DNA of 64,000 nt from Candidatus Dormiibacterota bacterium (GTDB lineage Bacteria > Chloroflexota > Dormibacteria > Aeolococcales > Aeolococcaceae). The first letter of the stretch is position 1; the number at the start of each line of letters is the position of its first letter. A program made the position numbers and the translations under genes. The stretch spans positions 14,498-78,497 of the forward strand of contig DASXNK010000194.1 of the NCBI GenBank assembly GCA_036495095.1, given 5' to 3'. The notes under the pieces are model-generated. The model was not told the origin of the DNA. It did no database searches and saw only the letters and a list, made by a program, of their open reading frames with translations. Of the stretch, positions 1,002 to 57,120 are shown piece after piece.

Positions 1002-1080
1002 CCACGAGAGTCGCCCGGCTGCTGTCGTGACGCCGCTGTCGGTGTTGTCCGCAGGGGGACGTGCTGACTAGAGTGGTCGC

Positions 1081-1722
1081 ATGAGAGGGCGTCATTCGGC
1101 CGCCGCCGCGAGCGGTGCGCTGCTCGCGATCGTCAGCCTGGCCGGTGGGGGTGAGGCCGCCGGCATCGGTGGAGGCTCCGGCATCGGTGGAGGCGCGGGC
1201 ATCGGCGTGGGCTCCGGCATCGGCGTGGGCCCGTCCGCGCTGGGATCGAGCCTCAGCTCCCCGGGCACCATCGGCCACCACACCTTCGGCGTCAGCACGC
1301 TGGTCCCGCCCCCCGCGCCGGTGCTCGACCTCCGCGGCCTCGGCACCCCGACCGGGGGAACCATCCCGCCGCCGGCGCCGCTCCACGCCGTCGGCGTGAC
1401 CGTGACCCAGAACGGGCCGACCACGCCCGCGCCGTTCACGACCTTCGACCTCGGCGGCCGCCAGACCATCCGGCCGGGAACGAGCGGCGGGACGAGCATC
1501 ACGAGCTCCTCGACCGCGAGCCAGCGCAACCAGGTCACCCTGAACCCCACCGTCCTCGGCGGCGGCAACGTCCCCGGCACCCGCGTGACCGTCGGGTTCG
1601 ACCCCGCCTCGCTGACCGGAGGCGGCGGCGCCGGCACCAGCGGAGGCGGCACGATGACCATCGGCGGCGCGTCGGGCGGCACGGCGGGCGGTGCCGGCGG
1701 CGCGGTGACCATCGCCGGATAG
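1081..1722 (+). CDS. secreted glycine-rich low-complexity protein (signal peptide plus GIGGGSGIGGGAGIGVGSGIGVG repeats)
   Basis: ATG at 1081 preceded by 'agagtgg'. N-terminus 'MRGRHSAAAASGALLAIVSLAGG' is signal-like. Long Gly/Thr/Ser tracts. The antisense Pro-rich ORF 1092-1712 is its mirror image. Confidence 0.45.
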   Translation: MRGRHSAAAASGALLAIVSLAGGGEAAGIGGGSGIGGGAGIGVGSGIGVGPSALGSSLSSPGTIGHHTFGVSTLVPPPAPVLDLRGLGTPTGGTIPPPAPLHAVGVTVTQNGPTTPAPFTTFDLGGRQTIRPGTSGGTSITSSSTASQRNQVTLNPTVLGGGNVPGTRVTVGFDPASLTGGGGAGTSGGGTMTIGGASGGTAGGAGGAVTIAG

Positions 1723-1864
1723 CTCTCCGGCGCCCGCGGTGGGGCGGGGAGGGTCCGGCCCGGCGGGTGACACCTGCCGATGCGAGTTGGCCCCGAGCCT
1801 CCGCGCGCGTATGCTCGGCGGCCGCAACGGGGCGCCGCGGGCGAGTCCGGTCACGAGGCGGACG

Positions 1865-2704
1865 ATGCCGAGATACATCCTGGACCAGACCTGGGAGCGC
1901 GAGGCCGAGCGCCTCGACGCGCTGGAGCGCTGCGGCGATCCGCTCACCGTCGACCACCTGCGCCGCACCGGCGTCGGCACCGGCTGGGACTGCCTCGAGG
2001 TGGGTGCGGGCCGGGGCTCGATCGCCCGCTGGCTCGCCGACCGGGTCGGCGACCGGGGCACGGTGCTGGCGGTGGATCTCGACACCACCCTGCTCGAGGA
2101 GGAGCGGCGCCCCAACCTCGAGGTGCGCCGCCTCGACATCCTCAGCGACCCGCTCCCCGCCGCGGCCTTCGACCTGGTCCACGCCCGCCACGTCATCGGC
2201 CATCTTCCGGACCGCGCCCGCGCGCTGCACCGCCTCGCCGCCAGCCTGCGCCCGGGCGGGTGGTTGCTCGTCGAGGACTTCGACTTCCGCTGGGCCGAGC
2301 TCGGCGACTGGCCCTGCGACCCGGTCGACGCCGGCCCCGTGTTCGGCCGGGTCTGGTCGGCGACCCTGGAGGTGATGCGCACCGGCACCTACGACGGCGG
2401 CTGGTCCTGGCGGGCGGCGGCCGGCCTGCGCGCGGTGGGGCTCGCCGAGGTGGCGGGCGAGGCGAGGGCGCCGATCGGCGACCGCGCCTTCACCGAGATG
2501 ATGCACCTCACGATGCTGCGGTTCCGCGAGCCGGTGATCGCCGGCGGCATCCCCGAGGCCGACATCGACCGCTGCCTCGCCATGCTCGCCGACCCTGGCA
2601 GCTGCGTCACCGCGGCGCCGCTGGTGTCGGTCTGGGGGCGGCGGCCGCCCCCGGACCGAACACCTCAGCGCGCCGCCCGGAGCGCGGCGACGAACCACTC
2701 GTAG
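1865..2704 (+). CDS. class I SAM-dependent methyltransferase
   Basis: Motif I 'LEVGAGRGSIARWLADRVG..GTVLAVDLD' and 'LRPGGWLLVEDF'. ATG 1865 with GAGG 7 nt upstream. The longer track ORF from 1739 is probably leader. Confidence 0.65.
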   Translation: MPRYILDQTWEREAERLDALERCGDPLTVDHLRRTGVGTGWDCLEVGAGRGSIARWLADRVGDRGTVLAVDLDTTLLEEERRPNLEVRRLDILSDPLPAAAFDLVHARHVIGHLPDRARALHRLAASLRPGGWLLVEDFDFRWAELGDWPCDPVDAGPVFGRVWSATLEVMRTGTYDGGWSWRAAAGLRAVGLAEVAGEARAPIGDRAFTEMMHLTMLRFREPVIAGGIPEADIDRCLAMLADPGSCVTAAPLVSVWGRRPPPDRTPQRAARSAATNHS

Positions 2705-3591
2705 GCGGGCGTCAGCGAGGGCCCCTGCGGCCAGCCGTTGATGACGCCGATCAGGTTCCAGTAGCGCTCCACCCGCTGGTCGCTGAAGGTCTCGAGCATC
2801 CAGACCAGCTCGGCGCGATACGCGGCGTCGTCGCTCCGGTGGGCGGCGGTCGCGAACAGCCCGACCAGCTCGTCGGCGATCGCCGCCGCCCCCTCCGACT
2901 CCGGCGCGACCCCGGCGGCGATCGCCGCCTGGCCACGCTCCACCACCGCCCGCCCGGCCTCCGCGGTGGGCTTGTCGTCGTGGCTGATGCCGGAGCCGGC
3001 CCGCAGCCGGGCCCCCTCGGTGACCATCCGCCGCACCCGGGCACGGAAGTCGGCGTCGCCGACCATTCCGGCGAGCTCGACCCAGGCGTCGATCTGGGCG
3101 TCGGACGGGTCCTCCGGCAGCGTGGGCAGGCCGCTGCGCATCACCGTGGCGAAGGGGTCGTCGGGATGGTCGGCGAAGACGGAGGCGATGAAGTCCTCCA
3201 TGATCCGTCCGGCCTCATCGGCGGACGTGCGGGCGAACGCGGTCATGCGATGTACCTCCTCGGGCCGGGAGTCGCGGCGGGCGATGGCCCGCAGCAGCGT
3301 CCGGCGCAGGGTGAGCTGACGGATGTGCAGGTCGATGGCGTCGGCGTGGGCGCTGGCCACCTCGGCGAGCCCGGCCCGGCGGTCGAGGACCTGGCGGATC
3401 GTCGCCAGGTCGAACCCCAGGTCGCGGAGGGTGCGGACCAGCTCGAGCCGGGCCAGCCCGGCCTGGTCGTAGCGGCGATAGCCGGACGGGCTGCGCTCGG
3501 CCTCGGGGGCGAGCCCGATGTCCGAGTAGTAGCGGACGGTCTTCACCGGGAGCCCGGTGAGCCGCGCCATCTGGCCGATCGAGATGTCCAT
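2665..3591 (-). CDS. MerR family transcriptional regulator with ~200 aa C-terminal effector-binding domain (TipA-like architecture)
   Basis: N-terminal HTH 'IGQMARLTGLPVKTVRYYSDIGL...SGYRRYDQAGLARLELVRTLRDLGFDL' is canonical MerR, followed by a coiled-coil and C-terminal domain. Confidence 0.8.
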   Translation of the reverse strand: MDISIGQMARLTGLPVKTVRYYSDIGLAPEAERSPSGYRRYDQAGLARLELVRTLRDLGFDLATIRQVLDRRAGLAEVASAHADAIDLHIRQLTLRRTLLRAIARRDSRPEEVHRMTAFARTSADEAGRIMEDFIASVFADHPDDPFATVMRSGLPTLPEDPSDAQIDAWVELAGMVGDADFRARVRRMVTEGARLRAGSGISHDDKPTAEAGRAVVERGQAAIAAGVAPESEGAAAIADELVGLFATAAHRSDDAAYRAELVWMLETFSDQRVERYWNLIGVINGWPQGPSLTPAYEWFVAALRAAR

Positions 3592-3691
3592 GCCCCGACC
3601 CTGAGGCCTCCAGTGGCTGGAGAGTCAAGGCCGTCACCGCGCCGTGACAGCGAGAGGGGGGCCGCGCCGGGGGCCCTTCCCGGAAGCCTAC

Positions 3692-3723
3692 ATACTCATG
3701 AGAATGCATATTCTCATGAGTAT
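3692..3723. promoter_or_regulatory. perfect inverted repeat ATACTCATGAGAAT-GCAT-ATTCTCATGAGTAT (14 bp arms, 4 bp spacer); candidate MerR operator in the divergent promoter
   Basis: Read directly from the sequence, ~100 nt upstream of the MerR start (3591), in an intergenic region. Unusually AT-rich for this genome. Confidence 0.6.
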
Positions 3724-3829
3724 CTGGTGCAAGGATGCCCTTACGGGGCATCTGTCCGCAACCGTGCACTCCCGGGATCCGCCCCGCTCGGATCTGGACC
3801 CGATGGAGTTCGCAGGTGCGGCCAGTCCA

Positions 3830-4069
3830 CTAGTAGTAGTAGGCGTCGACGTCACCGGCCGGCGCCCCGACCTGCCGGGCACCGTGGTCGACGGCCTCGG
3901 CGGGGATCTCGGATCGGCGCCGGGGGAACCGGCCCCGTTGGATGTAGAACTTGAGCAGCAGGGCAAACCCCATCCGGTTCTCGCCCCGCTTGGCCTGGAT
4001 GAGCGCCTGCTCGTCCGGAAGGACGGTCCAGTGCTCGATCAGCTCATCTGGATCGAGCTCTCGGCGCAC
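3830..4069 (-). pseudogene. tnpA: Tn3-family transposase TnpA N-terminal (DUF4158) fragment, truncated after 79 codons
   Basis: 'DELIEHWTVLPDEQALIQAKRGENRMGFALLLKFYIQRGRFPRRRSEIPAEAVDHGARQVG' matches the Tn3 TnpA N-terminal domain. It then hits a stop, and no downstream transposase frames follow. Confidence 0.6.
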
Positions 4070-4217
4070 CAGCCCTGCTTCGCCGGCAAAGTTCCGAGAA
4101 TGCTCGGAGGCGGAACTCGGGAGCCCAGGCCTTGGGGGCGGACAATTCTCTGGAAGGCGGGCTGTCGAATCGCGAGACGAGGACCCTAGCCTCCACGGCT
4201 CACGGGGTGATCAGCAC

Positions 4218-4679
4218 ATGTGGCCACTCTTGATCCTTCTGCTGGCGAGCATGGCGGCGCTCGGTGCGTACCTAGCCGCCCATGGGTTCAGGGACGGCCG
4301 CTGGGGTGGCTACGTCGTGCTCTATGCCGCGGGCGTCGCCGGCGCGGCGACATGGGGTCAGTGGTCCGGCCTCACCCAGTCGATCCGGCTCGAGCTGGTC
4401 TTCGGCTTCGTTTTGGTAGGTGTTGCGCTCTGGGGGATGGCCCTATTCGACGTCGTTTCGCGGGCCGACGCATCACTTGGTAGTCGAGTGGGGTACATCA
4501 TTTTTCTGCTACTGATCCCGCCGTACGGGGTGATCGATTGGGCTATCGATCGCACGGACGGCAGGTTGCGGGCGGAGGTCATCAGTTTGACGATTGCGAC
4601 AACCGCCACTCTACTGGGATCGTTCGCCGTAAACGCTTGGTGTAGCATGCATGGGCTTCGTGCGCTCCCTCCTTTGTGA
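4218..4679 (+). CDS. hypothetical polytopic membrane protein (lower-GC passenger gene)
   Basis: ATG 4218. 4-5 predicted TM helices ('LLILLLASMAALGAYLAA', 'LVFGFVLVGVALWGMALF', 'GYIIFLLLIPPYGVI'). Codon usage is less GC-rich than in neighbouring genes. Confidence 0.4.
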   Translation: MWPLLILLLASMAALGAYLAAHGFRDGRWGGYVVLYAAGVAGAATWGQWSGLTQSIRLELVFGFVLVGVALWGMALFDVVSRADASLGSRVGYIIFLLLIPPYGVIDWAIDRTDGRLRAEVISLTIATTATLLGSFAVNAWCSMHGLRALPPL

Positions 4680-4779
4680 TCCGAAGGCGACTCGTCGGGC
4701 CTCGTGGGCGTTCGGACAGCCATCGGGGTCTCGGTGCTCTCCGGTCTCCCCGCAGCTCTGGCGATCGAGTCCAGAGTGT

Positions 4780-4912
4780 GGGCAACCTGGCCGCCAGCGC
4801 GATCGCGGGCGTCCTCTGGTCCGCGATCTCGCCCGTGGTCGCCTTCGGCTACCTCGCCGGCTGGATGGCGCTTGCGCTCGGTGCTCTGGTCACCATCCGT
4901 CGCCGCACCTGA
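4780..4912 (+). pseudogene. C-terminal ~40 codons of an MFS transporter (remnant of the gene disrupted by the transposon)
   Basis: 'VGNLAASAIAGVLWSAISPVVAFGYLAGWMALALGALVTIRRR' is a typical MFS last TM helix. No upstream MFS body is present in any frame. Confidence 0.45.
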
Positions 4913-4960
4913 TCCGAGATCCGACCCCGAATCTCATATCCGTTGGTTTTTCGGCCATTG

Positions 4961-5452
4961 CTACCGGGCCCCCCCCTCGGCCGCGGCCTTGATCCGCGCC
5001 AATGTCGCCTCCATGCCGCGGCGGTTGTGGGCGGCGCGGTCGCCCACCCCGGTGGCGACCCTGCCGAGCGCCCGGATCACCCCGCCGCGGGAGTCGGTCC
5101 AGGTCTCGCTGATCCGGCAGCCGCCGGGGATGGCGGTCACCGTGTAGCGCCACTCCGCGACCGGCAGCCCCATCGAGGCGACCCGGAAGGCGAAGCTCCG
5201 GCCCGGGTCGGCCGACACCACCGTCGAGACCGTCGACCAGCGTCGCAGGCCGATGCGGTTGTGCCCGCGGAAGCGCGCCCCCACCGCGGCACCGCCGGCG
5301 CCGCCCATCCACTCGCAGCGCACGCACTCGGGGCTCCACTCCCCCATCCGGCGCACGTCCGAGACCAGCGCGTAGACCGCCTCGGCGGGAGCGGCGACGT
5401 CGACGCTCACCTCCACCGGCGGCGGCCCCGGCTCCCGGTTCACCCCGCCCAT
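4961..5452 (-). CDS. SRPBCC (Bet v1/START-like, polyketide cyclase-dehydrase fold) family protein
   Basis: 'VDVAAPAEAVYALVSDVRRMGEWSPE' N-terminal signature of the SRPBCC superfamily; 163 aa. Confidence 0.6.
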   Translation of the reverse strand: MGGVNREPGPPPVEVSVDVAAPAEAVYALVSDVRRMGEWSPECVRCEWMGGAGGAAVGARFRGHNRIGLRRWSTVSTVVSADPGRSFAFRVASMGLPVAEWRYTVTAIPGGCRISETWTDSRGGVIRALGRVATGVGDRAAHNRRGMEATLARIKAAAEGGAR

Positions 5453-5494
5453 CGCCCGTCCTCCGTCACGCCGCAGATCGTAGTGGGGAGCGGA

Positions 5495-5953
5495 TCAGCG
5501 GGGCAGCTGCTCGCGCCAGACGTTGCCGAGGACCCGCACCGGCCCGGCCAGCCCCTCGCGACAGCAGGCCAGGACCTCGGGGCCGATGGGCGGGTACATC
5601 TCCAGGGTGGCGAGATCCTCCACCGGCTCCCAGGCGACGCCGACGAGGCGGCCGTCCATGCCCGCGCGGAGGCTGCCGCCGCGGATGCTCCCGGCGTAGA
5701 CCAGGTTCACGAGATGGCGGCCGAGCGGCGCCACCGACTCGCAGAGCAGCAGCAGGCGGCCGACGTCGACCTCGTAGCCGGTCTCCTCACGAAGCTCGCG
5801 CTCGGCGGCGGCGGCCAGGGTCTCCCCCACCTCGACGCCACCGCCGGGCAGCAGCCGGTAGCGGCGGCCGTTCTTCAGGTGCTGGACCAGCAGGACCCGA
5901 TCGCCGTCCTGGATGAGCACCGCCACGCGGATCCGGATCTCGCGCGCGTGCAT
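5495..5953 (-). CDS. NUDIX hydrolase (MutT-like)
   Basis: Nudix box 'LPGGGVEVGETLAAAAERELREETG'. ATG at 5953-5951 chosen over the upstream track start (6079) because the extra 42 aa are low-complexity. Confidence 0.7.
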   Translation of the reverse strand: MHAREIRIRVAVLIQDGDRVLLVQHLKNGRRYRLLPGGGVEVGETLAAAAERELREETGYEVDVGRLLLLCESVAPLGRHLVNLVYAGSIRGGSLRAGMDGRLVGVAWEPVEDLATLEMYPPIGPEVLACCREGLAGPVRVLGNVWREQLPR

Positions 5954-6001
5954 CGGCGGATCATCCCACGCCCACCGCCGGTCGGGTTTCTCCCACACCT
6001 G

Positions 6002-6030
6002 TTGACTCCGAACGCCTGTTCGTGTACGCT
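6002..6030 (+). promoter_or_regulatory. sigma-A-type promoter of the LysM gene: -35 TTGACT (6002-6007), 17 nt spacer, -10 TACGCT (6025-6030)
   Basis: Hexamers and spacing read directly from the sequence. LexA box 1 lies inside the spacer. Confidence 0.5.
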
Positions 6031-6052
6031 CGCCATGCGAACAGGCGTTCGT
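6009..6052. promoter_or_regulatory. two LexA (SOS) boxes: CGAACGCCTGTTCG (6009-6022) and CGAACAGGCGTTCG (6039-6052); the whole 44 bp forms a larger inverted repeat
   Basis: Both match the Gram-positive/actinobacterial SOS box consensus (T)CGAAC-N4-GTTCG(A) perfectly in the core. Located between divergent NUDIX and LysM genes. Confidence 0.7.
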
Positions 6053-6090
6053 GAGCAGAGACGACCCCCCATCGACCACCCACCCACGAC

Positions 6091-6414
6091 ATGACCAACC
6101 TCCTCCACGACTTCGCCCCCGCCAACGCCCGCCGGCGCCGGCGCCGCATGCGCGCCATCGAACGGCGCATCCTGCTCGCGCTCGCCGGGGCGCTGATCCT
6201 CCTCGTGCTCCTCGGGAACGTGGTCTACGGCGGCAGCAGCGGTGGCACCCAGGTGGTCACCGTGGGCCCCGGTGACACGGTCTGGAGCATCGCCTCCGCG
6301 CACTACCCCGACGACGGCGACCTGCGTCAGCGGGTCGACGACATCCTGTCCATCAACCACCTCAGTGGCGGGACGCTGGTGCCGGGCCAGGCGCTGACGA
6401 TCCCGCCGCCATAG
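6091..6414 (+). CDS. chiZ: LysM-domain membrane protein, ChiZ (Rv2719c)-like SOS-induced cell-wall/division protein
   Basis: Arg-rich N-terminus, one TM helix ('ILLALAGALILLVLLGNVV'), C-terminal LysM 'VVTVGPGDTVWSIASAHY...VDDILSINHLSGGTLVPGQALTIP'. Immediately downstream of dual LexA boxes. Confidence 0.65.
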   Translation: MTNLLHDFAPANARRRRRRMRAIERRILLALAGALILLVLLGNVVYGGSSGGTQVVTVGPGDTVWSIASAHYPDDGDLRQRVDDILSINHLSGGTLVPGQALTIPPP

Positions 6415-6527
6415 GCAGGGGAGGAAGCGCCCGGCGCTGACCCACGCGCGCGATCGGACCCACCTCCCTCTCCGCTCTCGCGCCGCGGCCCCTCCCCTGC
6501 TCCGGTGGTGCTGCCTCCGACGAGCGG

Positions 6528-8488: not shown

Positions 8489-8684
8489 CCGGTCTCCTCA
8501 GGACGCTGACGCGCCCACTGCCCGGAAACCGTAGCAGGCCGCGCCCCGGCAGGCCAGCGGGCGACGGGCACCCGCATCCCGGCCGGCCGGGGGGGCGCTC
8601 CGCACATCCGCGCTCCCTTCGGTCAGGATAGGCGACCGTGAACGGGCTGCTCCTGGGTGACCGCCCCCGCGGCTGGAGAGGCGT

Positions 8685-9245
8685 GTGACCGCCGGCCGCG
8701 GCCGGCGGGAGCCGACCATCCCCTACCACGTGTCGCGGCGCACCAGCCGCCCCCCGGAGCGGGTGCTCGCCGACATCGCCCGGCTCGAGGTCCCCCGGGC
8801 CAGCGTGGTCGCGCGCGGCTCCACCCACCTCGTGCTCGCCCCCGGCCGGTCACCGCGCTACGGCGCCGGCGCCGCGGTGACCGTGGGCATCGCGGTGGTC
8901 TTCGGAGTGCTCATCGCCTCGGCGTCGTCGGTGGCGCTGATCGCCCTGCTCCCCGCTGCGCTGCTCCCGGGGGTGCCGCTCCTGCTCCGCCACGACCCGC
9001 GGGTCGGCGTCGGTGCGGTCGAGGACGCGGGCGCCACCACGGTCACGGTCAGCGGCGACATGTGGAGCGCGCTCGCCGTCGCCCTGCACAGCTACCTGGC
9101 CGGGCTGCCCACACCCACCACCGGCGACGGCGCATCCCCGCCGCCGGAGACGGACCCGCCCGCCGCGCCCGTCGGTCCCACCGCCGTCAGCGCCACTCCG
9201 GCGTCGGCGCCGGTCGCGTCACCCGACGACTCCGCCGCGCCCTGA
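8685..9245 (+). CDS. hypothetical membrane protein
   Basis: GTG 8685 with GGAGAGG upstream. Central hydrophobic segment 'VGIAVVFGVLIASASSVALIALLPAALLPGVPLLL'. Pro/Ala-rich tail. Confidence 0.4.
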   Translation: MTAGRGRREPTIPYHVSRRTSRPPERVLADIARLEVPRASVVARGSTHLVLAPGRSPRYGAGAAVTVGIAVVFGVLIASASSVALIALLPAALLPGVPLLLRHDPRVGVGAVEDAGATTVTVSGDMWSALAVALHSYLAGLPTPTTGDGASPPPETDPPAAPVGPTAVSATPASAPVASPDDSAAP

Positions 9246-9274
9246 TCTGCGGCGGCGGATGCGGCTAGCGGGGG

Positions 9275-9904
9275 CTAGCGGAGGACGCGCACCACCGCGA
9301 CCACCACACCCTCGAGGTGGAGGTCGCGGACGTAGATGGGCTCGAGCGCGCGGTTCTCGGGCTGCAGCCGGATGCGCCCCGCCTCGCGGAAGAAGCGCTT
9401 CACGGTGACCTCGTGCTCCCCGGTCTGCTCGTTCTCGATGCGCGCCACCACGATCTGGCCGTTGCTGGCGTCGCTCTGGGGGCGGACGACCACCATGTCG
9501 CCATCGTGGATGCCGCACTCGATCATGCTGTCGCCGCGGACGTGCAGCGCGAAGGCGTCGTCGCCGCCGGCGATCTCCGGCCCGAGCACGATGCGGTCCT
9601 CGATGTTCTCCTCGGCGAGGATGGGACCACCGGCGGCCACCCGACCGACCAGCGGGACCGAGAAGCTCCGCGGGACCGCCACCGGCTCGTCGCCGACCAC
9701 CTCGACCGTGCGGGACTTGGTGGGGTCGCGACGGATGTGACCCTTCTGCTCCAACGCATTCAGGTGGTTCTGCACCGTCGACGAGGAGCTGAGCCCGACC
9801 GCCTGCCCGATCTCTCGGACGGTGGGCGGGTATGCGTGATTGCGGGCGTGATTCCTGAGGAATTCCAGGATTTCCCGCTGCCGCGGATTGAGGCCCTCGA
9901 CCAT
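9275..9904 (-). CDS. lexA: LexA repressor
   Basis: N-terminal wHTH 'LNPRQREILEFLRNHARNHAYPPTVREIGQAVGLSSSSTVQNHLNALEQKG'. C-terminal S24 peptidase with 'AAGGPILAEE' cleavage region and 'VRGDSMIECGIHDGD...VKRF' Ser/Lys dyad. Confidence 0.95.
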   Translation of the reverse strand: MVEGLNPRQREILEFLRNHARNHAYPPTVREIGQAVGLSSSSTVQNHLNALEQKGHIRRDPTKSRTVEVVGDEPVAVPRSFSVPLVGRVAAGGPILAEENIEDRIVLGPEIAGGDDAFALHVRGDSMIECGIHDGDMVVVRPQSDASNGQIVVARIENEQTGEHEVTVKRFFREAGRIRLQPENRALEPIYVRDLHLEGVVVAVVRVLR

Positions 9905-9962
9905 GAAAATGTCCTCTTCGGCTGGCGCGTCGCGGAATGTAGCACGGGCGGCGGGGGAAATG

Positions 9963-18877: not shown

Positions 18878-19138
18878 TCAGCGCGACTCCACCAACAGCC
18901 GGATCCCGGTCCTCTCCTCTCCGTCGATGCTGATGTCGATGAAGGACGGGATGCAGATGAGGTCGATCCCGCCGGGGGCGACGTAGCCTCGGGAGATGGC
19001 GATCGCCTTGATCGCCTGGTTGATGGCGCCGGCCCCGATGGCCTGGACCTCCACCTTCTGAGAGCTGCGGATCACACCCGCGATCGCTCCCGCCACGGCA
19101 ACGGGCTTCGAGGTGGCCGAGACCTTGAGGATTTCCAC
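18878..19138 (-). CDS. spoVS: stage V sporulation protein S homolog
   Basis: 86 aa 'MEILKVSATSKPVAVAGAIAGVIR...QAIGAGAINQAIKAIAISRGYVAPGGIDLICIPSFIDISIDGEERTGIRLLVE' is near-colinear with B. subtilis SpoVS. AGGAA RBS. Confidence 0.9.
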   Translation of the reverse strand: MEILKVSATSKPVAVAGAIAGVIRSSQKVEVQAIGAGAINQAIKAIAISRGYVAPGGIDLICIPSFIDISIDGEERTGIRLLVESR

Positions 19139-19257
19139 GGCGGGTTCCTACGACGTTGCGAGAACGGCTTGCGGACGTGCCGGGCCGAGAACGGCCGGGC
19201 CGGAGAGGAGTGGTGCGAGCGGATTCTCTGAAGCGGGAGCAGGAAAGTCAATTGCGG

Positions 19258-20787
19258 TCACTTGGCGTACTCGACGGAGCGGGTCTCGCGGAGCACCGTC
19301 ACCTTGATCTGACCGGGGTAGGTGAGCTCGGTCTCGATGCGCTTGGCGATGTCGCGGGCCATGACCACGGCGGTGTCGTCGTCGACGCGCTCGGGCCGGA
19401 CCATGACCCGGATCTCCCGGCCGGCCTGGATGGCGAAGGTGCGCTCGACCCCCGGCATCTCGTTGGCGATCGCCTCCAGCCGCTCCAGGCGCTTGATGTA
19501 GGAGGCGAGGGTCTCGCGACGCGCCCCCGGCCGTCCCGCGGAGATCGCGTCGGCGGTGAGCAGCACGAAGGCTCCGATGGTCCTCGGCTCCTCGTCGTAG
19601 TGGTGGGCGCGGACCGCGTGGACCACGTTGGCGGGCCGTCCCAGCCGGGAGAGGATCTCGGCGCCGATGACGGCGTGCGACCCCTCGATCTCGTGGTCGA
19701 CCGCCCGGCCGATGTCGTGGAAGAGGGCGACCTCCCGGGCCTCGTCCTCGTCGGCCCCGATCTCGGCGGCGATCATCCCCGCGAGGGCGGCCACCTCGGT
19801 GCTGTGGACGAGCACGTTCTGGCCGTACGAGGTGCGGAAGCGCAGGGTGCCCAGCAACTTGACCAGCTCGGGATGCACGCCCTGGATGCCCGCCGCGAAG
19901 CAGGCCTTCTCCCCCTCCTCCTTGATCAGCAGCTGGATGTCCGAGCGGCTCTTGGTGACCATCTCCTCGATCCGGGCGGGGTGGATGCGACCGTCGGTGA
20001 GGAGCTTCTCGAGGGTCATCCGGGCGACCTCGCGGCGCACCGGGTCGAAGCCGCTGAGCACCACCGCCTCGGGGGTGTCGTCGATGATCAGGTCGACCCC
20101 GGTGGCCGCCTCGAGGGCGCGGATGTTCCGGCCCTCGCGGCCGATGATGCGGCCCTTCATCTCGTCGCTGGGAAGCTGGACCACCGTCACCGAGGTCTCG
20201 CCCGACTGGTCGGCGGCGTGCCGCTGCATCGCCGCGATGAGGATCTCGCGGCTGCGCTGGTCGGCCTCCTCGCGGACCCGGTCGGAGGCGGCGCGGATGC
20301 GGGCGGCGATCTCCGGGGTCAGCTCCGCCTCGACCCGGGTGATGATCTCGTCGCGCGCCTCGCCCTGGGTGAGGGCGGCCACCCGTTCCAGCTCGGTGGT
20401 GATCCCGGCGCGCTCGGCGTCGATGCCGCCGCGCACCTCCTCGAGCTCCAGCTCGCGGCGGCCGAGCCGCTCCTCCCGGGAGTCCATCTCCTGGGCCCGG
20501 CGCTCCATCGCCTCCTCGCGCTGGGCGCCGCGCTGCTCGAGGCGGGCCAGCTCGGCGCGGCGCTCCCGGTTCTCCGTCTCCACCTCGGAGCGGAGCTTCA
20601 GCGCCTCCTCCTTGGCGGCGAGCATCATCTGCTTGCGCTGCTGGTCGAGCTCGGCGAGGGTCTCGCGGTGGCGCTCCTCGTCGGCGGCGCGGGTGGCCCG
20701 CTCCTTCTCCAGCTGCTGTCGGGTGTAGAGGATGGCGCCGGCCAGGGCGACCGCGGCCACGGCCAGCAGGATCAGGGCTACCAGCAT
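19258..20787 (-). CDS. rny: ribonuclease Y (N-terminal TM, KH, HD domains)
   Basis: '[21 protein letters not shown]' TM anchor, coiled-coil, KH '[17 protein letters not shown]', HD '[17 protein letters not shown]...HDIGRAVD'. ATG 20787. Confidence 0.9.
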
Positions 20788-24846: not shown

Positions 24847-26210
24847 CCCTCGACCGTCGCGGGGACGCCGGCCACCTGGTAGGTGCCCGCGGCGGTGATC
24901 CGCACGGTCAGGAAGCGGTCGAGGAGGGCGGCGGGGTCGTCGAGGCCGCGCACCACCACCCGGCCGTCGACCTCGGGCGCCTCGCGCTCGGACCGTCCCA
25001 GCAGCACCGGGGGACGGCCGCCCCGCCCCGGGGCCACCGCCTCGCCGAGGACGAGCAGGTCGCGGCCGACCACCCGCCGGTTGCGCGCCCGCGAGGCCGG
25101 AGCCTGGGCGGCGTACACGGCGCGGCGCCGCTCCTCCCGGAGCTCGGGCGCCACCTGGCCGGTCATCCGGGCGGCGACGGTGCCGTCCTCCTCCGAGTAG
25201 GCGAAGGCGGTGACCCAGTCGAGCTCGGCCTCGCCGAGGAAGTCGAGGAGGAACTGGAACTCAGCCTCGGTCTCCCCGGGGAAGCCGACCACGAAGGTGC
25301 TGCGCAGCGCCAGGTCGGGCATCGCGGCCCGGAGCCGGGCGAGGACGTGCATCGCCCGGTCGGCGCTGTACGGCCGCTTCATCCGCCGGAGCACGTCGGG
25401 GTGGACGTGCTGGAGCGGCATGTCGAGGTAGCGGGCCACGCAGGGGGTGGTCGCGATCGTCTCGATCAGCTCCTCGGAGACCCCCTCGAGGGTGGCGTAC
25501 ATCATCCGGATCCAGGTCGGCGCCGGCTCCAGGGCCGCCAGCCGGCGCAGCAGCTCGGAGAGCGAGCTGCGCTCGGGGAGGTCCTTCCCGTAGCCGGTGA
25601 GGTCCTGGGCGACCAGCACCAGCTCCTCGACCCCGCGGTCGAGGGCGGCGGCGGCCTCGGCGGCGATCACCTCCACCGGCTTGCTGCGCAGGTTGCCGGT
25701 GAACGACGGGATCGTGCAGAAGGCGCAGCGGAAGTTGCAGCCGTCGCTGAGCTTGAGGTACGTGGTCGCCGGCGCGGTGGGACGGAAGGGCAGCTGCGAG
25801 TAGTCCACCGGGCGCAGCTCCTCCACCCGCACCACCGGGCGTCCGATCCGGGGGCCGGCGAGCTCGTCGGGGAGCGCAGGCCAGTCGCGGGTGCCGATCA
25901 CCAGGTCGAGCTCGGGCATCGATTCCGCAAGGTCGGCGCCGTGACGCTGGGCGAGGCAGCCGCTCGCCACCAGCCGCATCCCGGGGTTGCGCCGCTTCAC
26001 CTCGCCGAGCTCGAGCAGGGTGTCGACCGACTCCTGGGCGGCGGCCTCGATGAATCCGCAGGTGTGCACGATGGCGACGTCGGCCTGCTCGGGGGAGGCC
26101 GCGGGCTCGTACCCCCGACCCTCCATCAGGCCCTCGAGGTAGCCGCCGTCCACCTGGTTCTTCGGGCAGCCGAGGACCCGCAGGTGGTAGGTCGGCGGCG
26201 TGCCGGCCAT
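24843..26210 (-). CDS. rimO: ribosomal protein S12 methylthiotransferase RimO (radical SAM, TRAM)
   Basis: 'YHLRVLGCPKNQVD', 'CNFRCAFCTIP', C-terminal TRAM. ATG 26210. The 635-aa track ORF includes 180 aa of out-of-frame yajQ region. Confidence 0.85.
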   Translation of the reverse strand: MAGTPPTYHLRVLGCPKNQVDGGYLEGLMEGRGYEPAASPEQADVAIVHTCGFIEAAAQESVDTLLELGEVKRRNPGMRLVASGCLAQRHGADLAESMPELDLVIGTRDWPALPDELAGPRIGRPVVRVEELRPVDYSQLPFRPTAPATTYLKLSDGCNFRCAFCTIPSFTGNLRSKPVEVIAAEAAAALDRGVEELVLVAQDLTGYGKDLPERSSLSELLRRLAALEPAPTWIRMMYATLEGVSEELIETIATTPCVARYLDMPLQHVHPDVLRRMKRPYSADRAMHVLARLRAAMPDLALRSTFVVGFPGETEAEFQFLLDFLGEAELDWVTAFAYSEEDGTVAARMTGQVAPELREERRRAVYAAQAPASRARNRRVVGRDLLVLGEAVAPGRGGRPPVLLGRSEREAPEVDGRVVVRGLDDPAALLDRFLTVRITAAGTYQVAGVPATVEG

Positions 26211-26212
26211 CG

Positions 26213-26704
26213 TCAGCGGTAGTTGGTGAACTGCAGGGGGACGTCGAGCTCGAGCTCGCGGAGGTCCTTGATCACACCCTGCAGCGTGTCCTTCTCCTTC
26301 GACGAGACCCGCAGCTTGTCGCCCTCGATGCGCACCTGCACCTTGGGATGCGCGGCGCGGATCCTCTTGTTGAGATCCCGGCCGAGATCGTCCGAGATGC
26401 CCTTTTTGAGCTTGACCACCTGGCGGAGGTTCCCCCTGGCGGCGTCCTCGGGCTTCTGGGGGTCGAGGATCTTGAGATCGATCCCACGGCGGTGCAGCTT
26501 GCTCTGGAGCACGTCGAGCATCGCCTTCAGATGCATGTCCGAGTCGCTCAGGAAGACCAGCTCGTCCTTCTCCTGGGTGATCTCGGCGGTCACGTTCTTG
26601 AAGTCGTAGCGGGTCGTGATCTCCCGCCGCGCCTGGTCGAGCGCGTTCACCAGCTCCTGCTGGTCGTAGTCGCTGACGACGTCGAAGCTGTGGTCTGTTG
26701 CCAT
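26213..26704 (-). CDS. yajQ: YajQ family (UPF0234) nucleotide/cyclic-di-GMP-binding protein
   Basis: 163 aa 'MATDHSFDVVSDYDQQELVNALDQARREITTRYDFKNVTAEI...' colinear with YajQ. Confidence 0.85.
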   Translation of the reverse strand: MATDHSFDVVSDYDQQELVNALDQARREITTRYDFKNVTAEITQEKDELVFLSDSDMHLKAMLDVLQSKLHRRGIDLKILDPQKPEDAARGNLRQVVKLKKGISDDLGRDLNKRIRAAHPKVQVRIEGDKLRVSSKEKDTLQGVIKDLRELELDVPLQFTNYR

Positions 26705-26731
26705 GGCGTAGCAGAGGATACTGAGCCAGCC

Positions 26732-27151
26732 ATGTCCACCGGTCCCCCACGCCCCGGAGCTCGCTCCGGATCGCCCTTCGAGGAGGCCTTCGGCTTCCGC
26801 CGCGCGGTGGCCGTCGACGGCCGGGTGGTGGTGTCCGGGACGGCGCCGATCGAGCCGGACGGCGGCTGCGCCGAGGGCGCCGGGGCCCAGGCGCGGCGGT
26901 GCCTGGCGATCATCGCCGAAGCGCTGCGGGAGCTCGGGGCGGCACCCGCCGACGTGGTCCGCACCCGGATGTACATCGTCGACCCCGAGGACGCCGAGGC
27001 GGTCGGCCGCGCCCATCTCGACGCCTTCGGCGAGGCCCGGCCGGCGGCGACGATGGTGGTGGTTGCCGGCCTCCTCGACCCCCGATGGCGGGTGGAGATC
27101 GAGGCCGAGGCCGAGGTCAGCCGGCCCGGAGCCGCCGCGCCACCAGGCTGA
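26732..27151 (+). CDS. RidA/YjgF/RutC family protein
   Basis: 'FGFRRAVAVDGRVVVSGT...RMYIVDPEDAEAVGRAHLDAFGEARPAATMVVVAGLLDPRWRVEIEAEA' matches the RidA fold pattern. Confidence 0.7.
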   Translation: MSTGPPRPGARSGSPFEEAFGFRRAVAVDGRVVVSGTAPIEPDGGCAEGAGAQARRCLAIIAEALRELGAAPADVVRTRMYIVDPEDAEAVGRAHLDAFGEARPAATMVVVAGLLDPRWRVEIEAEAEVSRPGAAAPPG

Positions 27152-39244: not shown

Positions 39245-41379
39245 GCCGGGCTTGCCGTCCCGGCGCCGGCGGCCTGCGCCTGCTTGCCCGCCAGCTCGCT
39301 GATCGCCAGCTTGCGGGAGAGGTTGACGCGGCCCTTGTCGTCGATCTCGATGACCTTGACCATGATCTCGTCACCGATGTTGACCACGTCCTCGACCTTG
39401 TTGACGCGGTGGTCGGCGAGCTGGGAGATGTGGACCAGCCCGTCCTTCTTCGGCAGGATCTCGACGAAGGCGCCGAAGTTCATGATCCGGACCACCTTGC
39501 CCTTGTAGATCTTGCCCACCTCCACGTCCTCGGTGAGGTCGCGGATCATGGCGATCGCCTGCTGCATCGCGGCGCCGTCGTTCGAGGCGATCGACACCCG
39601 GCCGTCGTCCTCGACGTCGATCTGGACGCCGGTCTCCTCGACGATCCGGCGGATGGTCTTGCCACCCGGGCCGATGACGTCGCGGATCTTGTCGGGGTTG
39701 ATCTGGATGGTCTCGATGCGTGGCGCCCACATCGACATCTCCTCCCGCGGCGCGGGCAGGGTCTCGGTCATCTTGCCGAGGATGTGCAGCCGGCCCACCC
39801 GGGCCTGCTCCAGCGCCTGCTCCATCAGCTCCCAGCGGAGCCCCTTGATCTTCATGTCCATCTGCAGGGCGGTGATGCCCGTCTCGGTGCCGGCGACCTT
39901 GAAGTCCATGTCGCCGAGGGCGTCCTCCATCCCCTGGATGTCGCTGAGGATGGCCGCCCTGTCACTGTTCTCGTCGGTGATCAGCCCCATGGCGATGCCC
40001 GCCACCGGCGCCTTCAGCGGCACCCCGGCGTCCATCAGCGCCATCGTCGAGCCGCACACCGAGGCCATCGAGGTGGAGCCGTTGCTGCTCAGGATCTCGC
40101 TGACGATGCGGACCACGTACGGGAAGTCCTCGTCGGAGGGCATCACGTTGTGCACCGCGCGCTCGGCGAGCGCGCCGTGACCGATCTCCCGCCGGCCCGC
40201 GGAGCGCAGCGGGCGCGCCTCCCCGACCGAGTAGGGCGGGAAGTTGTAGTGGTGCATGAAGCGCTTGAACTCCTCGAGACCGAGGCCGTCCAGCTTCTGC
40301 TGATCCTGGCCGGAACCGAGGGTGACGACGCTCAGCGCCTGGGTCTGGCCGCGGGTGAAGAGGGCGCTGCCGTGGGTGCGGGGAAGCAGACCGACCTGCG
40401 ACCAGATGTGCCGGATCTCGTCGGTGCGGCGGCCGTCAGGACGGATGCCCTCGTCGAGGATGGCGGCGCGCACGGCGCGCTTGACCTCGCCCTCGAACGC
40501 CTTCTTGATCTCGGCCTCGCGATCGACGAAGCGCGGCGCCAGCTGCTCGACGGTCTGCTTCTTGAGCTCGTCGAGGGCCCGCTCCCGGGCCGCCTTGTCG
40601 GCGTTGCGGGCGGCCTCGCCGATGCTGCCGGCGATCGCCTCGGCCACCGCGGCCTTGACCTCGGGGTCGACCGCGTTGGAGGGATAGGTCATCGGCGCCT
40701 TGCCGACCTTCGCCTTGATCTCGTTCTGGAAGGCGACCAGGCGGCGGATCTCGTCGTGGGCGAGGTGGAGCGCCTGGAGCATGACCGCCTCGGGCACCTG
40801 CATGGCCCCCGCCTCGACCATGCCGATGGCGTCGTCGGTGCCGGCCACGATCAGGTCGAGGTCGGACTCCTGGAGTTCCTGCAGGGTGGGATTCAGCACC
40901 AGCCGGCCGTCGATGAGGCCGACCCGGACGCAGCCCACCGGGCCCGCGTGGGGGACGTCGCTGATCGCCAGGGCGAGCGATGCGCCGGTGACAGCGAGCG
41001 TGACCGGGTCGTTCTCCTGGTCGGCGCTGACCACGGTGGCGACCACCTGGACGTCGTTGCGGAAGTCCTTGGGGAAGAGCGGCCGCAGCGGCCGGTCCAT
41101 CAGCCGGCAGGCGAGCGTCGCCGCCTCGGTGGGACGGCCCTCACGGCGGGGGAAGCTGCCGGGGATGCGACCCGCGGCGTAGAGCTTCTCCTCGTAGTCG
41201 CAGGTGAGCGGGAAGAAGTCGATGCCCTCTCGGGGCTGGTGCGCGCCCACCGCGGTGACCAGCACCATGGTGTCGCCGGAGCGGATGAGCACGGCGCCGC
41301 TGGCCTGCTCTGCGATGTGGCCGGTCTCGACGGTGAGCTTTCGGCCGGTGTAGTCCATTTCGAATTTCTGGTAGGGCAT
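39241..41379 (-). CDS. pnp: polyribonucleotide nucleotidyltransferase (PNPase)
   Basis: Two RNase PH domains, KH, S1 '[21 protein letters not shown]'. ATG 41379 with GAGG RBS. ~310 nt leader after rpsO. Confidence 0.95.
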
Positions 41380-41637
41380 GGGAACCTCGGATGTCGGGTG
41401 ATGATCCCGGTCCGGGTATCTCCGCCACGGGCACCTGCGCCACCGAGGGTGAGGTGTTGGGGATGAGAGAGCGACGGTGCGGTCGCGCCGTTGGGCAGCG
41501 GTCCGTTGCCGATCTCCGATCGCCAACGTCTCACCGCGTCGGCCGCGCAGCGCGTCCTGTGAAGGGACACCCGCGACCGGGTGGGACGTGGACGGTGTGG
41601 GTTACAAAGTGTTGTAGTGGTGATGCCCACGCATCAG

Positions 41638-41667
41638 CGGGGCGAAACGCCCTCCCCGAGGAGGGCG
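41638..41667 (-). terminator. GC-rich hairpin(s) (GGGCGaaaCGCCC / GCCCTCCccgaGGAGGGC) directly after rpsO; likely a partial terminator/attenuator before pnp
   Basis: Perfect 7-bp stem and adjacent 5-bp stem read from the sequence. Followed on the coding strand by only a short GTTTCG tract, so read-through is likely. Confidence 0.45.
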
Positions 41668-41689
41668 GCGGCCATTGAGCGCTGGCAGC

Positions 41690-41956
41690 TCAGCGGCGCA
41701 GTCCCAGGCGGGCGATGATGGCACGGTAGCGCGACACATCGGTCCGGGTCAGGTAGTCGAGCATCCGCCGGCGGCGTCCGACCAGCTTCAGCAGACCGCG
41801 CCGGGAGGCGTGATCCTGCGGGTGCTCGCGCAGATGCTCGGTGAGCATCCTGATGCGCTCGCTGAGGATCGCGATCTGCACCTCCGCCGAGCCGGTGTCG
41901 GTCTCGTGCTGGCGGTGCTCGGCGATGATCTCGGACTTCTCGCGGATGTCGGGCAC
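41690..41956 (-). CDS. rpsO: 30S ribosomal protein S15
   Basis: 88 aa '[59 protein letters not shown]'. Confidence 0.95.
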
Positions 41957-42102
41957 TGGGTTCTCCTGGGGCCCTGGAGCGGGCAGTCACCGTGCGGAGG
42001 GCCGTTCGCCGCGCATCGCTGGACGCGTCACCACGGCGGGGGCTCCCCGCAGGTCGTGAGGGAGTGTACAGGAAGGCGGGGGTCGGCACCCGGCGCCGGG
42101 CC

Positions 42103-53965: not shown

Positions 53966-54065
53966 GGTGGTGGGCAGCCCCTGAGTATAACGCGAACACC
54001 TGCTCGCCGCAGGAGCCCCTTTCCCGAGCGGGCGCGGGGGAGGCGTCGCCCTCTCCCGCGCGGCG

Positions 54066-56567: not shown

Positions 56568-56574
56568 CGGCCGG

Positions 56575-56982
56575 TCAGTTGCAGATCGGGTCGTGGAAGC
56601 GATCCTTCCAGGTCCACGGGCCCTCGGTGCCTCCCTTGCCGCCGATGTACGACGCCCGATAGGTGCGGTTCCGGGCGTCGCGGTAGCTCCAGCCGTAGAT
56701 GTACAGCCAGTCCTCATAGGACCCCGACGGGTTGCTGCGGAAGTTCACACAGGCGGGGTCGCAGCACGCCTGGCCCAGGTCGATCACACCTCGGTCCTCG
56801 AAATGGGTGCATGGACCAGGGATGTTCTGCCACGGGCAGTCCGGGCATGGTGCCGGTGCCTGGGCGCCGGGCGGACAGTCGCTCCGGGCGGCGCGGGCCA
56901 TCTCGGACCCCACCGCGAGGCTGGCGGCGACCGCGAATGTGGCGCTGGCGAGCACCCGGGCCGCCGTCTGCAGAGCTCTCAC
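56575..56982 (-). CDS. secreted cysteine-rich hypothetical protein (8 Cys)
   Basis: Signal peptide 'MRALQTAARVLASATFAVAASLAVG'. 'CPPGAQAPAPCPDCPW...CTHF...CCDPAC...PICN'. No family assignment. Confidence 0.45.
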   Translation of the reverse strand: MRALQTAARVLASATFAVAASLAVGSEMARAARSDCPPGAQAPAPCPDCPWQNIPGPCTHFEDRGVIDLGQACCDPACVNFRSNPSGSYEDWLYIYGWSYRDARNRTYRASYIGGKGGTEGPWTWKDRFHDPICN

Positions 56983-57120
56983 GGGGACGTTCCTCCCAGC
57001 GGGATCCGGCGGATGCCGGTTCCCTTGGACATTCCTCGATGAGACGACCGACCGGACGGAAAACCTACGCGGAAACCGCGACTTGAATGACCCACACGCG
57101 CCAGACGAGGCGAGGCGTTC

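Follow-up and report, generated by a model that had tools for sequence, protein, structure and literature searches.

Anatomy of the locus

The window analysed here, a 64-kb stretch (64,000 nucleotides) of contig DASXNK010000194.1 from a Candidatus Dormibacterota bacterium, carries a MerR-family regulator gene beside which lie a piece of a Tn3-family transposase gene (tnpA), a small membrane-protein gene and the tail of a major facilitator superfamily (MFS) transporter gene. A first-pass annotation had read this arrangement as a MerR-controlled MFS efflux locus destroyed by a Tn3-family transposon that subsequently decayed. The comparisons reported below argue for another reading, which we regard as probable: a self-contained MerR regulator borders an unrelated variable spot, and this spot holds a decayed mosaic of mobile DNA. 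In window coordinates, the features concerned are:

2665-3591, minus strand: MerR-family regulator gene, 308 amino acids (aa), with the Pfam domains MerR_1, MerR and MerR-DNA-bind
3598-3628, minus strand: putative MerR-type promoter/operator of the MerR gene, from an alignment over 22 loci
3623-3628, minus strand: -35 element TTGACT of this promoter
3604-3622, minus strand: 19-nt spacer, containing the dyad CTCCAG-CCA-CTGGAG (3608-3622)
3598-3603, minus strand: -10-like element CAGGGT, 6 nt before the MerR ATG (3589-3591)
3692-3723: perfect AT-rich palindrome ATACTCATGAGAAT-GCAT-ATTCTCATGAGTAT, arms 100% complementary
3734-3752: small GC hairpin, folded as RNA into a 7-bp stem (GATGCCC/GGGCATC) with the loop TTACG
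3754-4117, minus strand: dead 5' stub of a Tn3-family tnpA, ~111 codons of DUF4158 (4087-3754) plus 29 bp upstream (4089-4117)
4136-4683, plus strand: membrane-gene module, comprising a coding sequence (4218-4679, 153 aa) and ~80 bp of its own upstream region
4684-4768: 85-bp filler separating the MFS tail from the membrane module
4769-4912, plus strand: MFS transporter gene fragment, an orphan 3' end of 47 codons and a stop (4910-4912), equivalent to approximately the last one or two transmembrane helices
4913-4975: right junction zone, within which backbone similarity to loci L001 and L031 resumes (~4968-4976)

Orthologues of the MerR protein (59-98% identity) were recovered by protein search, at one genome per species, from 21 loci, all of them in Candidatus Dormibacterota/Chloroflexota metagenome-assembled genomes (MAGs) except L017 (labelled 'bacterium') and L020 (Solirubrobacteraceae). 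The identity to the window copy amounts to 96% in L001, 95% in L003 and 76% in L004.

A window-specific insertion in a conserved backbone

The DNA specific to the window measures ~1.2 kb and extends from 3753, right after the hairpin stem, to ~4975, within the last codons of an SRPBCC gene. The backbone is syntenic on both sides (methyltransferase-MerR on one, NUDIX-epimerase-CtaG on the other), and the genes closest to the mosaic and the regulator are:

1739-2704, plus strand: SAM-methyltransferase gene, convergent with the MerR gene
4961-5452, minus strand: SRPBCC (Polyketide_cyc2) gene, PF10604 with E=1.7e-22; backbone, co-directional with MerR
5495-6079, minus strand: NUDIX hydrolase gene, PF00293; backbone

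The closest relatives show empty sites. In L003, sequence matching window 1802-3752 passes directly into sequence matching 5492-6502, the hairpin lies ~10 bp from the NUDIX stop codon, and both the SRPBCC gene and the mosaic are missing; in L001 the order is MerR, palindrome, hairpin, ~75 bp and then the SRPBCC gene. Thus, the segment from 3753 to ~4975 is an insertion. At the same spot L002 and L020 harbour AraC(cupin), NmrA-like (by sequence motif only) and SnoaL genes, and L004 harbours a 157-codon open reading frame (ORF157) together with a MOSC-like gene. To the right of the mosaic, blastn similarity covers window 4968-5199 against L001 and 4974-5135 against the metagenome contig L031, two loci in which the SRPBCC gene directly adjoins the hairpin and the palindrome; the C-terminus of its product ends in ..AAAEGGAR* in the window versus ..AAAEAVAAPA* in L001. 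The outer junctions are imprecise, and since one falls inside tnpA and the other inside the 3' end (last codons) of the SRPBCC gene, they do not represent transposition joints. No inverted-repeat pair brackets 3753-4975.

The segment had been called foreign and decayed in the first-pass annotation, and in this it was right: the mosaic is absent from the closest relatives, contains a decayed tnpA stub and has a GC content of 62-68% against 74% for the window, with the lowest value of all 64 kilobase bins at 4001-5000. In an independent contig from a metagenome (L025), whose identity to window 3348-4576 is 99.5%, the 3752/3753 junction of the window, its tnpA stop codon and its joint between tnpA and the membrane gene all recur. 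Because this contig carries the same arrangement, we consider the mosaic to be real and population-fixed, not an assembly chimera.

The Tn3-family transposase stub

The 79-codon open reading frame (ORF) at 3830-4069 (minus strand) matches the N-terminal DUF4158 domain (PF13700, E=2.4e-11, profile positions 16-89 of 165), as the first-pass annotation had recognised, and the homology continues through its TAG stop to 3754 (E=1.5e-12 and profile positions 15-105 of 165 for the read-through translation); the domain is present as a fragment only. The stub's nearest relative, P0072, shares 63% identity with it across 110 codons (window 4087-3758) and itself matches residues 40-135 of the Tn4430 TnpA (E=7.5e-8). 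It consists of a 151-aa DUF4158-only ORF that ends in a stop and is identical in two samples (L026 992-1447; L027 223-678); it may be a further decayed copy or, alternatively, a DUF4158 protein that stands alone. At the nucleotide level (blastn), 3754-4072 is 73% identical to L026/L027, and the alignment as a whole runs from 4117 down to exactly 3754.

Base-level alignment with L026 revealed a 42-nt deletion by which the start codon was lost, a GAG codon turned into the nonsense codon TAG at 3830-3832, beyond which homologous codons (WTGRT..HR.QIR) continue, and a 2-nt deletion near 3775 that shifts the frame (the RECTVAD motif lies in the other frame), to which a truncation at 3754 (~codon 111) is added. 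The DDE domain (PF01526), for which a search had been proposed, is not present: tnpA homology stops at 3754, where the conserved backbone hairpin begins, and there is therefore no room for the remaining ~900 codons. The remnants of 38-bp Tn3 inverted repeats that the first-pass annotation had proposed to look for did not emerge either, as the pattern GGGG-N26-36-TAAG gave 0 matches in the 64-kb window (a divergent repeat of this element could be missed by such a scan). Within 3753-4960 no ORF matched a resolvase, and no 5-bp target-site duplication was found. The candidate GGGGTCTC...CCCC at 4725-4751 was rejected as a Tn3 inverted repeat, being devoid of the inner TAAG and the A-rich core, not abutted by the MFS homology and ambiguous in orientation.

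Upstream of the lost tnpA start, the 29-bp block 4089-4117 is 86% identical to L026 and contains nested inverted repeats (GTTCC..CCGAG-AATG-CTCGG..GGAAC); the element's res region or tnpA operator may survive in it as a remnant. In comparison with Tn3-family elements (Tn4430 TnpA, PDB 7QD4), the stub (3754-4087) encodes the same N-terminal DUF4158 DNA-binding domain, but it retains ~11% of a ~1000-aa transposase and bears four inactivating lesions, and with the DDE domain, the GGGG...TAAG repeat, the resolvase/res and the target duplication not found here, what lies at the locus is a relic and not an element.

An intact membrane-protein gene and an orphan MFS tail

The lower-GC ORF at 4218-4679, which had been correctly described as encoding a small membrane protein, is intact and specifies a protein of 153 aa that is predicted to be multi-pass. 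Its GC content is 62% and its GC at third codon positions (GC3) is 73%, as against ~96% GC3 in the neighbouring host genes (MerR and SRPBCC). The protein has no Pfam match above cut-off (a PLDc_N-like match, E=0.041, is sub-threshold), and its four homologues (P0067-P0070), all from metagenomes, share 66-80% identity. The Ka/Ks values of 0.15-0.23 denote purifying selection, and the gene is, as judged from its sequence, probably functional. In L022, L023 and L024 the similarity is confined to 4136-4683, that is, to the coding sequence and at most 80 bp upstream of it, and the flanks of these homologues are unrelated to the window and to one another. Exact-sequence look-ups of the window ORF, P0001 and P0066 found no contigs. 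The homologue in L022 (868-1191) is truncated at 107 aa, and an IS110-family transposase gene (1406-2662; DEDD_Tnp_IS110/Transposase_20) follows immediately downstream.

The 85-bp filler (4684-4768) shows no similarity to any fetched locus and contains no recognisable Tn3-type inverted repeat. Heavily degraded MFS sequence is a possible origin; a single match (P0008) extends the MFS alignment into it, weakly and in frame, as far back as 4721.

The MFS C-terminal tail is genuine, with 65 database proteins matching its last 33-47 residues at 65-85% identity, many of which carry PF07690. By tblastn the homology spans from 4769 to 4909-4912 (73-81% identity to MFS C-termini), which moves its start to 4769 from the 4780 proposed earlier. 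The 78-aa ORF that holds the tail has no Pfam match itself, and of an MFS permease (~400 aa, 12 helices) only the 47 C-terminal codons have homologous sequence here. A continuation of the homology upstream in another frame was considered and discarded (the frames in question share the same nucleotides and do not reach significance). The 21 relatives have no MFS gene of the tail's family at a distance of up to 10 kb from MerR, and the window has none elsewhere. Orphan tails of the same family (48-90 aa; P0022, P0017) are found in unrelated contexts on the long contigs L033-L037, where they lie among integrase, rve, SIR2 and Prim-Pol genes (L033 6001-6147 and L034 5831-5977) or after msrB (L035-L037), and such remnants are consequently not unusual; the nucleotide similarity of L033/L034 to the window starts at the same codon (VQSVGN). 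As L001 and L003 show empty sites, the tail belongs to the inserted material and is not the remnant of a resident gene.

The MerR-family regulator and its own putative promoter

The regulator gene at 2665-3591 is real, as had been proposed. Its product matches MerR_1 (PF13411, E=6.8e-17), MerR (PF00376) and MerR-DNA-bind (PF09278), and its N-terminus has the winged helix-turn-helix (HTH) and coiled coil (residues 1 to ~105) that define the MerR family. The closest solved structure to the HTH is TipA-N (2vz4, E=3.5e-12), followed by structures of MerR, CueR and CadR, all PDB sequence matches being confined to residues 1-105 even when a 19-sequence profile was used. The C-terminal domain (~200 aa, residues ~108-308, window 2665-3270) is conserved in all 21 orthologues and has numerous invariant Trp, Arg and Asp positions across those from Dormibacterota; it matched no family in Pfam, NCBIfam or PDB sequences, the profile search included, and TipAS (PF07739) was detected neither in Pfam (E up to 1) nor in NCBIfam nor in the PDB search with the 19-sequence profile. 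A single-sequence AlphaFold2 model of the protein is all-helical and of low confidence (pLDDT 62), and a fold search with it matched the N-terminal domain only. The C-terminal domain may represent an undescribed effector domain.

The MerR gene has a 40-bp 3' overlap (2665-2704) with the methyltransferase gene, a pairing kept in L001-L004, and since this downstream gene converges on it and overlaps it, the MerR transcript looks monocistronic. Upstream of the start codon, the alignment of 22 loci (the window and its 21 relatives) yielded the consensus cCTTGACTCTCCaGt.aCtGGAGacctCAagcT.GgGgca-ATG. All 22 have the promoter block, composed of TTGACT, a 19-nt spacer with CTCCAG-N3-CTGGAG and CAnnnT, at 6-7 nt from the ATG/GTG start, and most of them keep the same spacing; in L009 both half-sites are altered and the symmetry is retained (CTCCCC-CTA-GGGGAG). 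The sequence thereby displays the overlong (19-20 bp) spacer with an internal operator dyad that is characteristic of MerR-type promoters. A standard sigma-70 scan found no promoter, as it permits spacers of 16-18 bp only. The start codon sits at the expected transcript start, and the mRNA is therefore probably leaderless.

In tipA, an operator dyad lies in the 19-bp spacer of the gene's own promoter, the layout of TipA-type autoregulation. By analogy, the window regulator is probably autoregulated through its own promoter: a MerR dimer would occupy the dyad at 3608-3622, and a ligand bound to the helical C-terminal domain would realign the overlong spacer, activating the regulator's own single-gene transcript. 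This mechanism is drawn from the established behaviour of MerR-family and tipA promoters. With TipAL/tipA of Streptomyces the locus shares the TipA-N-like HTH, the monocistronic gene, the 19-bp spacer with its dyad and (in the low-confidence model) a long helical C-terminal effector domain; it differs in having no TipAS detectable by Pfam, NCBIfam or PDB profile, and an internal start from which a short isoform would arise did not come to light either, although no search aimed at one was made. Hence, the earlier label 'TipA-like' holds for the HTH and the regulatory layout and fails for the effector domain.

The divergent target that had been expected beside MerR is not what the relatives contain. 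In the closest ones the upstream neighbour is a co-directional NUDIX, SRPBCC or SnoaL gene, and in the more distant ones a co-directional gene terminates just ahead of the MerR -35 element. L004 has a different arrangement, in which ORF157 (9474-9947, minus strand, coding-like GC3, no homologue among the other loci) begins on the strand opposite to MerR, at a distance of 53 bp from the MerR ATG, and is followed by the palindrome and by a gene (8651-9343, minus strand) that resembles a MOSC-domain protein by eye; ORF157-MOSC may be a divergent MerR-controlled unit.

Eight distant loci (L005-L008, L011, L013, L018 and L019) have in common a ~200-nt non-coding-looking block (..GGCGGCCATACCC..GATCGTGGAGC..CCGCCGTCTCCGAGAA..TGTCGGTCCGCAAGCG..) situated ~60-260 nt before the MerR start (e.g., L005 9740-9950), which had no Rfam match at gathering threshold.

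The palindrome-hairpin module

The perfect 14+14 palindrome noted in the first-pass annotation is present at 3692-3723, with arms of 14 nt each (3692-3705 and 3710-3723) around a 4-nt GCAT spacer and a further 8-bp palindrome (CTCATGAG) within each arm. It is unique in the window, where a search with the half-site gave 4 matches (0.3 expected), all inside it. It is carried by L001-L004, L020, L025, L031 and L032 as well as by the window, and it was absent upstream of MerR in 16 more distant loci. Across the window and these loci the arms have 13 invariant nucleotides, following the pattern ATACTCATGAGAA-N6-TTCTCATGAGTAT, and both the 6-nt centres (TATGCA, CCTGCC, CATGCA, TGAAGG) and the flanks vary. 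The hairpin occurs at the same distance from the palindrome, with its loop or stem sequence changed, in L001-L003, L031 and L032. In the window, the mosaic has its left border at the last base of the hairpin (3752), where the alignments with L002, L003 and L020 all end. Coordinates of the palindrome (with the hairpin where present) are ~315-384 in L001, 159-227 in L002, 9842-9912 in L003 and 9424-9455 in L004, and among metagenome contigs 2327-2397 in L031 and 2432-2469 in L032.

The last two contigs, found by scanning metagenomes, have the palindrome without MerR. In L031 the hairpin and an SRPBCC gene flank it on one side, and on the other lie unknown DNA and what is left of an IS21 istB gene; in L032 the flanks contain no recognisable families. 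The remaining three of the five metagenome matches (L028-L030) were rejected as chance matches in low-GC sequence, and in viral contigs, plasmids and phages the search returned nothing but chance partial matches. Next to MerR, the distance from the palindrome to the -35 element extends from ~170 bp in L001 to ~500 bp in L004, with the 157-codon ORF in between. Because the conserved dyad lies elsewhere and the palindrome is restricted to one clade and found without MerR, we conclude from these alignments that it is not the MerR operator, and the control function once assigned to it falls away.

Among the closest relatives, it is the 3' end of the co-directional upstream gene (NUDIX, SRPBCC or SnoaL) that precedes the module, and in total the module was encountered in at least 7 contexts, which differ in the DNA to either side of it. 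Conceivable roles are those of an operator for an unidentified protein, an insulator/terminator or a recombination site. That palindrome and hairpin together form an undescribed recombination/insertion site, or an operator for an unknown protein, and thereby mark a hot spot of cargo exchange in Dormibacterota appears quite unlikely to us; if true, it would account for the differing DNA beside the palindrome in every genome examined. The module, located at the edge of the variable region, is the sole part of the locus with some potential. A His-rich peptide gene (THENMHSHEY) was also considered for the palindrome and rejected, as the spacing to the hairpin changes by lengths not divisible by three and start/stop codons are not conserved. 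The module had no match in the databases searched, and an Rfam scan of 3400-5100 gave one meaningless sub-threshold match only.

Origin of the mosaic

We reason that the locus combines a self-contained regulator with ordinary decayed mobile DNA in a variable spot; pseudogenised transposase stubs and orphan gene tails are commonplace in variable regions generally. Foreign DNA with at least one Tn3-family element would have entered the variable intergenic spot, deletions or illegitimate recombination would then have trimmed it, and the intact membrane gene would have been retained, perhaps through selection; both the order of these events and the arrival of the pieces on mobile DNA are inferred. 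The locus resembles other variable intergenic spots that collect mobile fragments in its conserved backbone, in content that differs per relative, in its lower GC and in its pseudogenised fragments, and it differs from them in that a 32-bp palindrome, strictly conserved, marks the border together with a hairpin. The three pieces of the mosaic are unlinked to each other in every other context that could be examined. Several points weigh against this reconstruction. No intermediate is available, such as a genome in which the site still holds an entire Tn3 element or an MFS gene of full length, so that the history is an inferred one. Tn3 elements carry passengers or a resolvase divergent from the tnpA 5' end, and the membrane gene occupies this cargo position, which makes a passenger origin possible (as the first-pass annotation had held), although the gene's homologues lie between unrelated flanks and no inverted repeat of Tn3 type was found in support of that origin. 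The right-hand junctions (4683/4684, 4768/4769 and 4913-4975) lie outside the coverage of the independent contig, and the deposited MAG in which locus tags VGL20_19225/VGL20_19230 show the same adjacency of membrane ORF and MFS tail is possibly the window's own source. Finally, the divergent ORF157-MOSC unit of L004 abuts the MerR promoter, and some relatives might thus have a divergent MerR target, one that is not an MFS gene.

The history proposed at first, in which a divergent MFS gene controlled through the palindrome was interrupted by a Tn3 transposon bearing the membrane gene and later eroded by deletions, seems to us very unlikely. The order of the pieces (tnpA 5' end on the minus strand, divergent small gene and MFS tail on the plus strand) fits a Tn3 insertion in an MFS gene, pairs of MerR-family regulators and multidrug transporters such as BmrR-bmr are well known, and in L004 the MerR promoter faces a divergent unit. 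Nevertheless, the operator that is conserved with MerR is a dyad distinct from the palindrome and placed in the regulator's own promoter; the 21 relatives have neither an MFS gene near MerR nor an intact MerR-MFS pair; and L001, L003 and L031 have the palindrome and hairpin beside SRPBCC or NUDIX with no MFS remnant, for which several independent clean deletions would be needed. Moreover, the MFS homology stops short of the membrane module, the intervening 85 bp matching nothing, and the empty sites of L001 and L003 speak against an insertion into a resident MFS gene. With BmrR-bmr and merR-merTPAD the locus shares a MerR-family regulator with a large C-terminal domain near MFS-derived sequence, but here this sequence is a 47-codon orphan tail in imported DNA, 1.2 kb from the promoter, the relatives are without an MFS partner, and the operator serves the regulator's own promoter. 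The locus should therefore not carry the annotation of an inactivated MerR-controlled efflux system, and in this correction lies the chief value of the analysis. A separate arrival of the three pieces through independent insertions and deletions, with the membrane gene gained alone as a free-standing orphan, we judge unlikely, yet the least so of the alternatives: the relatives of each piece have flanks unrelated to the other two, the same spot carries different cargo in L001, L002/L020, L003 and L004, and the interruption of the L022 homologue by an IS110-family element points to DNA rich in mobile elements. Against it, the pieces are joined by joints of 18 and 85 bp, for which a single acquisition with internal deletions is more economical, and the lowered GC is common to all three, though the data do not separate one event from several. 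We give hardly any credence to the idea that the short DUF4158 ORF has been domesticated and kept as a DNA-binding protein, with the palindrome as its possible target. The 79-codon ORF is retained in two samples, and the nearest relative is likewise short and present in two samples; however, the ancestral start codon is deleted, the in-frame stop with homologous codons beyond it and the frameshift form a pseudogene signature, of the six differences that separate the window from L025 the two located in the stub each alter an amino acid, and the palindrome predates the stub, since relatives devoid of the stub possess it.

On the reading that we favour, a regulator independent of the decayed mobile DNA at its side, the locus documents ordinary mobile-DNA decay in the poorly studied, uncultured phylum Candidatus Dormibacterota, and yields as a by-product a comparative promoter/operator definition for a conserved MerR-family regulator whose effector domain fits no described family.

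Additional observations in the window

A toxin-antitoxin role for the SRPBCC gene was considered and dismissed, the match to the Rv0910 toxin family being far below cut-off and no antitoxin ORF being present. One tblastx comparison yielded nothing beyond composite-score noise. Outside the mosaic, bins of lowered GC (67-69%, against the window mean of 74%) occur at 19001-20000, 26001-27000, 41001-42000 and 54001-57000. On the far side of MerR, window 1010-1802 fails to align with L001-L003, although both of its flanks do; it holds a Gly-rich repetitive ORF (1081-1722; GIGGGxGIGGG...) together with the overlapping long ORFs typical of high-GC sequence.

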